DNA of 328 bases from Escherichia coli (GCF_003334385.1 NZ_QOWN01000202.1), one strand, 5' to 3'; shown: positions 1 through 328, numbered from the stretch's first letter. The notes: generated from the letters alone by a model not told the origin. Made by a program: numbers and translations.

Positions 1-230
1 TGCACACCGGATTCCATCCCGCCATCGCGGGAACGCCGGGAAAGGACCACCACATTGCGGCGCAGTTTTCCCCTGCGTACCGGTGCCCGTGACACCACTT
101 CTTCTTTCAGCACATTCGCACCCGCACGGGTTGCCTCACGCAGCACCCGGTTATTTTCCGCACCACTCAGAAGCTGCAAATCACGGCTTATTTCTTCAAG
201 TCCCGAAAAATCCAGCAGGGTTTCGATCAT
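1..230 (-). CDS. Phage neck/tail-component protein, HK97 gp10-like family (putative); N-terminal 76 codons, gene continues past window position 1
   Basis: Seen in sequence: minus-strand ATG at 230-228 with a GGAGG core 6 nt upstream; the frame is open for 76 codons to the window edge. Codon choice is enterobacterial-like (ctg, gaa, gcg, gtg, cgt, ccg, aaa dominate). Translation: MIETLLDFSGLEEISRDLQLLSGAENNRVLREATRAGANVLKEEVVSRAPVRRGKLRRNVVVLSRRSRDGGMESGV. Family call is from memory: the 'GL-EL' N-terminus followed by an 'APV-x-G-LRR-' motif resembles the HK97 gp10-like family (Pfam PF04883, as I recall). No search was run. Confidence 0.78.
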   Translation of the reverse strand, partial: MIETLLDFSGLEEISRDLQLLSGAENNRVLREATRAGANVLKEEVVSRAPVRRGKLRRNVVVLSRRSRDGGMESGV

Positions 231-328
231 TTTTCCCCTCCCAGCCGACAAAGAATTTCCAGGCGCCCGCCGGTCGCATCCGGCACGGGCACCCCGACAA
301 CATTCAGGATACAGTCACGCCAGGGACC
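227..328 (-). CDS. C-terminal 33 codons of an upstream phage morphogenesis gene (possibly a head-closure/head-tail adaptor protein); 5' end lies beyond window position 328
   Basis: Seen in sequence: minus-strand frame open from position 328 to the TGA at 229-227, translating GPWRDCILNVVGVPVPDATGGRLEILCRLGGEK*. The stop overlaps the downstream ATG (ATGA), a typical coupled-gene junction. Codon usage is reasonable (ctg, ccg, gcg, ggc, gaa). The product guess is inference from the usual gene order in siphophage neck modules, not from recognisable sequence similarity. Confidence 0.5.
   Translation of the reverse strand, partial: GPWRDCILNVVGVPVPDATGGRLEILCRLGGEK
235..242 (-). promoter_or_regulatory. 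Shine-Dalgarno / ribosome-binding site for the gp10-like gene
   Basis: Seen in sequence: minus strand reads GGGAGGGG (plus-strand cccctccc at 235-242). The GGAGG core at 241-237 sits 6 nt upstream of the ATG at 230-228. The site lies inside the last codons (G-G-E-K) of the upstream gene. Confidence 0.6.

Follow-up and report, generated by a model that had tools for sequence, protein, structure and literature searches.

An ATGA overlap preceded by a ribosome-binding site joins the head closure and tail completion genes of an HK97-like Escherichia coli prophage

The DNA analysed here (the window, 328 nucleotides of Escherichia coli, GCF_003334385.1 NZ_QOWN01000202.1) carries on its minus strand the junction of two phage neck-module genes. 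The junction is an ordinary, already-annotated 4-base ATGA overlap preceded by a ribosome-binding site and belongs to an HK97-like E. coli prophage. The anatomy and identities of the genes, the start codon of the second gene and the conservation of the overlap were all read from the window and its homologs. Taken as a whole, the data are best explained by a head closure (Hc1)/tail completion gene boundary with a coupled ATGA overlap, a reading to which we assign a probability of about 0.8; the coupling component leans on analogy with gene pairs that have been studied experimentally.

The minus-strand sequence across the junction (242..227) is GGGAGGGGAAAAATGA, the reverse complement of window positions 227-242. 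The upstream gene occupies 328..227 and contributes its last 33 codons plus the stop codon TGA at 229..227; it is the 3' end of a phage head closure gene (Hc1, SPP1 gp16-like). Its frame translates as GPWRDCILNVVGVPVPDATGGRLEILCRLGGEK followed by the stop, with GGRLEILCRLGGEK as the C-terminal end. The last codons are CTG GGA GGG GAA AAA TGA, and the downstream frame starts one base back with ATG ATC GAA ACC (ATG at 230..228). The latter is the 5' part of an HK97-gp10-family tail completion/Neck1 gene (230..1, 76 codons), of which the translation begins with MIETLLDFSGLEE and stays open as far as the window edge; the full in-window product is MIETLLDFSGLEEISRDLQLLSGAENNRVLREATRAGANVLKEEVVSRAPVRRGKLRRNVVVLSRRSRDGGMESGV, running off the window. 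Stop and start codon share the tetranucleotide ATGA at 230..227. A Shine-Dalgarno-like stretch, GGGAGGGG (242..235), lies where the upstream gene encodes Leu-Gly-Gly-Glu and is composed of the third base of the Leu codon (242), the Gly codons GGA (241-239) and GGG (238-236) and the first base of the Glu codon GAA (235). Its GGAGG core (241..237) is separated from the ATG by a spacer of 6 nt (GGAAAA, 236..231), of which the A run extends into the ATG. The description of this overlap and its embedded Shine-Dalgarno sequence in the earlier note, which placed them at 227-242, is accurate to the base. The ATGA at 230..227 is the only one in the window when both strands are scanned, and about 2.6 occurrences of the bare tetranucleotide are expected by chance in 2×328 nt; what lies beyond chance is that this ATGA joins two long, conserved open reading frames that are recognised by Pfam. 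The CDS boundaries in RefSeq/GenBank fall exactly on the ATGA in loci 99% and 95% identical to the window (L001 and the Stx2 phage locus L002) and in HK97. In the best genome match (L001, 99.1% identity), the co-directional genes for the closure protein (5752-6102) and the gp10 homolog (6099-6545) share 4 nt.

Both genes were placed in neck-module families, as had been claimed. The closure homolog of L001 matched PF05521 (3.5e-16, residues 3-111), TIGR01563 (gp16_SPP1; 23.7 bits, above the curated cutoff of 20.6), phrog_25 'head closure Hc1' (4.3e-31) and the PDB entry 2KZ4 (1.9e-21). The downstream homolog matched PF04883 (9.2e-10), TIGR01725 (82.5 bits, above the curated cutoff of 30.8) and phrog_5 'tail completion or Neck1' (1.1e-34). 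A profile built from 40 diverse gp10 homologs matched PDB chain 9MU2_P, named 'HK97 gp10 family phage protein'. A search of the PDB with the single gp10 protein returned only designed 'Bagel' repeat proteins, which are spurious matches. The gene order agrees with these assignments: in L001, in Stx2 phage WGPS6 (L002, a Pankowvirus) and in HK97 the order is adaptor, closure, gp10, terminator and major tail, and the gp10 gene sits between closure and tail terminator, upstream of the major tail gene. The HK97 gp10 family tail completion protein is the functional equivalent of lambda gpZ, SPP1 gp16.1 and 80alpha gp51.

The window matched 1244 of 5426 complete E. coli genomes at 90-99% identity (megablast), nearly always in the chromosome, and the annotation under these matches reads 'phage head closure protein' and 'HK97-gp10 family putative phage morphogenesis protein'. 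Many Stx1- and Stx2-converting phages match as well (∼95% identity) and have the junction annotated identically. In L001 and L002, the genes for terminase, capsid/protease, portal and head-tail connector (5416-5742) precede head closure (5752-6102), and the HK97-gp10 family gene (6099-6545) is followed by tail terminator (6542-6886), major tail, chaperones and tape measure. The E. coli prophage to which the window belongs is HK97-like and lambdoid, the type known as an Stx carrier among Pankowvirus phages; the window sits in its late (morphogenesis) operon, and both genes would be read from the minus strand off one polycistronic mRNA. A consensus pattern scan of the coding strand found no promoter-like or terminator-like sites between the closure and gp10 genes, and an Rfam scan of the window gave no matches at E≤1.

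Several features of the surrounding locus were noted in passing. Overlaps of 4 nt join portal/connector, closure/gp10 and gp10/terminator, whereas connector and closure are separated by a gap of 9 nt. The portal/connector junction of L001 (5416-5419) is GTGA with a Shine-Dalgarno duplex of −11.6 kcal/mol, and the gp10/tail terminator junction (6542-6545) is ATGA with a weaker one (−6.9). Terminator-like hairpins with T-runs are present between the tail terminator and major tail genes (L001 plus strand, 6873-6889 and 6916-6930), coinciding in position with a 'putative terminator' annotated in the HK97 record; they may tune neck versus tail gene expression. The portal gene is annotated as frameshifted/pseudogene in the closest E. 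coli genome (L001 2835-5419) but is intact in WGPS6 (L002 2834-5413), and the capsid gene of 1938 nt (L001 686-2623) bears in WGPS6 the annotation of a fusion, 'major head protein/prohead protease'. Within the window itself a direct repeat of 12 nt occurs in two copies, CAGTTTTCCCCT and CATTTTTCCCCT (63-74 and 228-239). On the minus strand, it amounts to a second AGGGGAAAA motif within the gp10 gene, where CTG takes the place of the ATG that follows the first (codons Arg-Gly-Lys-Leu); this match is most likely due to chance. Other repeats in the window were set aside as short two-copy chance matches.

Coding of both frames was assessed on an alignment of 173 distinct homologs of the window region, scored for the frequency of the majority base at each codon position. 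The values at positions 1, 2 and 3 were 0.78, 0.80 and 0.54 for the upstream frame and 0.89, 0.93 and 0.67 for the downstream frame. The relaxation at third positions in both minus-strand frames is as expected of translated frames and supports their coding, next to the Pfam, NCBIfam and PHROG matches. All 8 differences between the downstream part and phage WGPS6 fall at third codon positions. The N-terminal motif M-I-x-x-x-L-D-F-S-G starts at the identical codon in homologs down to ∼45% identity. In the gp10 frame, a single other possible start lies between the preceding stop and the ATG, namely TTG at 251..249. It was rejected, as the nearest relatives have CTG there and the first-base column is only 49% conserved. 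This TTG, 21 nt upstream of the ATG, is private to the window, which has T at 251 where the closest relatives L001 and L002 have C; the change is synonymous at a third position of the closure gene, and no Shine-Dalgarno sequence stands in front of the TTG. Neither a downstream start at another in-frame codon nor a non-coding upstream frame, either of which would speak against the junction as it was read in the earlier note, was found among the homologs; start and coding are both conserved.

The overlap was followed over increasing evolutionary distance. A set of 162 close loci comprises the window-like clade and a Cronobacter/Enterobacter-type clade that is ∼73–77% identical; 160 of these could be scored and 159 have the 4-nt overlap. 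When viral and genomic loci were taken together, a 4-nt NTGA overlap was present in 239 of 263 loci. Their junctions comprise 44 distinct sequences of 24 nt, with ATGA as the commonest form and GTGA in several lineages. The columns T229, G228 and A227 are 99–100% conserved. The overlap is likewise 4 nt in Proteus phage Pm34, and it is 8 nt in Burkholderia phiE125 and Pseudomonas phita81A. In eight representatives at 31–63% identity, with the starts as called by the source pipelines, the overlaps were 4, 8, 4, 8, 8, 4 and 8 nt, plus one gap of 6 nt, the 4-nt overlaps being those of the representatives at 63%, 48% and 40% identity. PF05521 lies directly upstream of PF04883 in these eight distant lineages, wherever the neighbours could be scored. 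Scans of viral contigs with two further queries (P0123 and P0130) gained little extra diversity. In one lineage at 45% identity (L273 1166-1212) the motif GGGGGTGAAAAATG before the start is kept and the upstream gene is one codon longer (ATGCTTAA), resulting in an 8-nt overlap; this case shows how 4-nt and 8-nt overlaps can interconvert via small changes at the stop codon. The exact ATGA is a feature of the clade, and 'overlap or near-abutment' a feature of the family.

The predicted duplex of the window's Shine-Dalgarno stretch with the 3' end of 16S rRNA (ACCUCCUUA) has an energy of −10.7 kcal/mol, a value reached by only 1.5% of 20-nt segments on the coding strand of the homologous 12-kb locus L001. 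Comparable sites in the same locus precede the genes for capsid (−10.3), connector (−11.6) and closure (−12.8). Over the 44 distinct junctions the duplex energies ranged from −12.4 to −3.3 kcal/mol (median −8.15). Conservation had been expected of both the overlap and the Shine-Dalgarno sequence; the ATGA/GTGA overlap and the start position are indeed kept, also in HK97, but the strength of the Shine-Dalgarno is not. The strong GGAGG is particular to the lineage of the window rather than a requirement kept by all, and a strong site is not essential to the arrangement because its strength is not conserved over the clade. The commonest form in the enterobacterial clade is GAAAAATGA, with A233 and A231 each at 94%. 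G241 and G240 of the Gly codon are 99–100% conserved and positions 239-236 are variable. G242 stands at a third codon position, for which the mean is 54%, yet it is 94% conserved, which suggests a degree of selection for a run of G.

How would the tail completion gene be translated? Two bases are common to the Hc1 stop UGA and the following gene's AUG, and GGAGG stands 6 nt upstream within the last Hc1 codons. A ribosome ending at the UGA would already have its small subunit above the AUG, where it could be kept by pairing of the Shine-Dalgarno with the anti-Shine-Dalgarno sequence, and the terminated ribosome could then reinitiate on the tail completion gene (termination-reinitiation). Free 30S subunits can probably initiate there too, since the site is strong and unstructured; such a site would serve independent initiation equally well. 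Translational coupling, to whatever degree, is plausible on the precedent of other E. coli gene pairs. In the work of Huber et al. 2019, ATGA is the commonest overlap type, and for four of the five native E. coli ATGA pairs translation of the second gene depended on that of the first within a context of −99 to +30; removal of the Shine-Dalgarno lowered reinitiation in four of the five pairs tested (PMC6728339). By analogy, termination-reinitiation probably contributes at the present junction, assisted by the Shine-Dalgarno, with independent initiation also possible.

The main alternative is that the overlap is a by-product of genome compaction, with gp10 translated wholly by de novo binding of 30S subunits to its own Shine-Dalgarno, independent of translation of the closure gene. 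The site itself would allow this (−10.7 kcal/mol, A-rich spacing of 6 nt, no masking structure), and one of the five E. coli ATGA pairs tested, bioBF, did use de novo initiation (PMC6728339). The drift of overlap length among lineages (4 nt, 8 nt or a short gap) is likewise what compaction would give. Against it stand the coupling of the other four tested pairs (PMC6728339) and the members of the clade with a very weak Shine-Dalgarno (−3.3 to −5 kcal/mol), which keep NTGA, suggesting that the overlap aids initiation there. The retention of the overlap in these members lends mild indirect support to a role for the overlap itself. We regard exclusive de novo initiation as possible, but as clearly the less probable reading.

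A second mechanism of coupling would have the gp10 start masked by RNA structure, opened only by ribosomes that translate the closure gene. RNA unfolding is a recognised mechanism in other E. coli gene pairs (PMC6728339; PMC12548453), and the minimum-free-energy fold of the junction pairs part of GGGAGGGG with the downstream sequence ACCCUGCUGG. However, folds of the junction were no more stable than those of shuffled sequences, with z = −0.42 over 111 nt and z = +0.19 over 56 nt. RNAalifold predicted 0 conserved pairs over 29 diverse homologous junctions. Because no structure beyond the shuffled controls was detected, the masking model was rejected and is considered highly improbable. The 2025 review by Brown and Wade describes the mechanism, RNA unfolding versus 30S/70S reinitiation, as not firmly established (PMC12548453).

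Very improbable is a programmed −1 slip on the A run (GAA AAA UGA), in which the P-site tRNA-Lys would re-pair one base back and AUG would be read next. If true, it would yield a closure/tail completion fusion of 264 amino acids in addition to the two separate proteins; made at low frequency, such a fusion would be a minor virion or assembly component, by a logic like that of the G/GT tail chaperone frameshift. The frame −1 after AAA is exactly that of gp10, and conservation of GAAAAATGA is high among the enterobacterial loci, but Glu-Lys-stop, Met and the start codon account for all of the conserved bases. The upstream frame (GGA GGG GAA AAA TGA) offers no canonical X XXY YYZ heptamer, and a slip there could at most involve a single tRNA on A-AAA; neither folding nor RNAalifold on 29 junctions revealed a downstream stimulatory structure, a conserved fusion product was not found, and lineages with 8-nt overlaps are without the arrangement. 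Fusions do exist in the databases: phrog_23409 (264 positions) spans closure residues 1-98 and the entire gp10 protein, and four proteins contain both Pfam domains (P0002, P0004, P0008 and P0046). These proteins have internal deletions or frame changes that trace to indels in the DNA, and each is a singleton or doubleton versus a cluster of 1197 members for the normal protein. P0046 joins GAEK straight onto MIET because its contig (L278, 980-1000) has A6 (GAAAAAATGA) rather than A5, along with further disruption upstream. The fused frames are probably signs of prophage decay or of sequencing errors in homopolymers. Least credible of all is a true gene on the plus strand that would make the minus-strand junction unreal: plus-strand frames 0 and 1 are without stop over all 328 nt and L001 has an antisense frame of 141 amino acids with a TTG start (5969..6394, minus strand of L001), but the substitution periodicity tracks the minus-strand frames, which effectively refutes it, every Pfam, NCBIfam and PHROG match belongs to minus-strand products, and the opposite-strand gene is annotated in none of the inspected annotated records. 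A GC-rich antisense artefact is the most likely origin of these open frames.

With coupling at the ATGA overlap as the preferred reading, the junction can be set beside known systems. HK97 (NC_002167) has the same two families in the same order (closure Hc1 5545-5883, gp10 family 5880-6329), a 4-nt ATGA overlap with acgggagctgaaaaATGAttgag at the junction, a C-terminal G-x-E-K before the stop and an N-terminal MIET. The next junction, to the tail terminator, is a 4-nt overlap as well, and gp10 homologs in HK97-like phages share ∼75% protein identity. HK97 differs in its weaker Shine-Dalgarno (GGGAG, −6.6 versus −10.7 kcal/mol in the window) and in its head genes, since protease and major capsid are fused in one gene and the portal gene is long in the lineage of the window. 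The neighbouring HK97 junctions (L264, 3327-3330 and 2546) are overlaps too, that between adaptor and closure being 1 nt. The feature is already known, as it is annotated in HK97 and in the inspected E. coli genome and phage records; the view that such an arrangement is typical of phage morphogenesis operons rather than novel holds.

In the trpB-trpA pair the overlap is 1 nt, in a TGATG geometry; besides this other geometry, the pair differs from the window in that it encodes metabolic enzyme subunits of a 1:1 complex. It is the classic case, in the E. coli trp operon, of downstream-on-upstream translation dependence at a stop/start overlap (as cited in PMC6728339). The pairs of Huber et al. 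[quoted passage not shown] They are, however, cellular genes with experimentally proven reinitiation, whereas the window holds a prophage structural pair for which it is proposed by analogy; moreover, local structure was proposed to suppress de novo initiation in those pairs (PMC6728339), and none is detectable at the window junction.

A functionally equivalent pair is gp50/gp51 of Staphylococcus phage 80alpha, which has the same order and overlapping genes and from which the PDB chain matched by the gp10-family profile (9MU2_P) derives; the overlap is 1 nt instead of 4 nt and the proteins are only distantly related. In the neck structure of S. aureus phage 80alpha/SaPI1, gp50 forms the hexameric head-tail joining protein. 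The tail completion protein, gp51, is present as one monomer within the tail, where it binds the tape-measure trimer and the end of the DNA; gp51 was equated by the authors with HK97 gp10, lambda gpZ and SPP1 gp16.1 (bioRxiv 10.1101/2024.12.10.627806). The RefSeq name of gp50 (L280 1767-2069), 'Holliday junction branch migration helicase', is at odds with the hexameric head-tail joining protein seen by cryo-EM and is likely a misannotation.

The 80alpha structure bears on the proposal in the earlier note that the arrangement fixes the stoichiometry of structural proteins, which comes out weak: in 80alpha, the one phage whose virion has had the homologs placed in it, they are present at 6:1, yet their genes overlap (gp50/gp51 by 1 nt, gp49/gp50 by 4 nt), and overlap does not track virion copy number. 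If equimolar amounts were meant, the proposal is probably wrong by this analogy. The copy numbers (hexamer versus monomer) are those of 80alpha itself and not of the window's phage (bioRxiv 10.1101/2024.12.10.627806), but if the latter resembles 80alpha, its virion needs many more copies of Hc1 than of the tail completion protein, and the overlap would not be explicable as a means of matching equimolar subunits. The overlap may set a fixed unequal ratio, or may simply reflect compaction and co-expression.

Overall, the importance of the junction is small beyond annotation. The start codon of gp10 is confirmed, and the boundary of the Hc1 and tail completion genes is a 4-nt or 8-nt overlap over a wide range of HK97-like siphophages. 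The clade, in which the overlap is otherwise kept and the Shine-Dalgarno strength varies between −12.4 and −3.3 kcal/mol, is a natural test series for reinitiation versus de novo initiation. The comparison with 80alpha also carries a caution, namely that an ATGA overlap between structural genes is not evidence for an equimolar need of their products.
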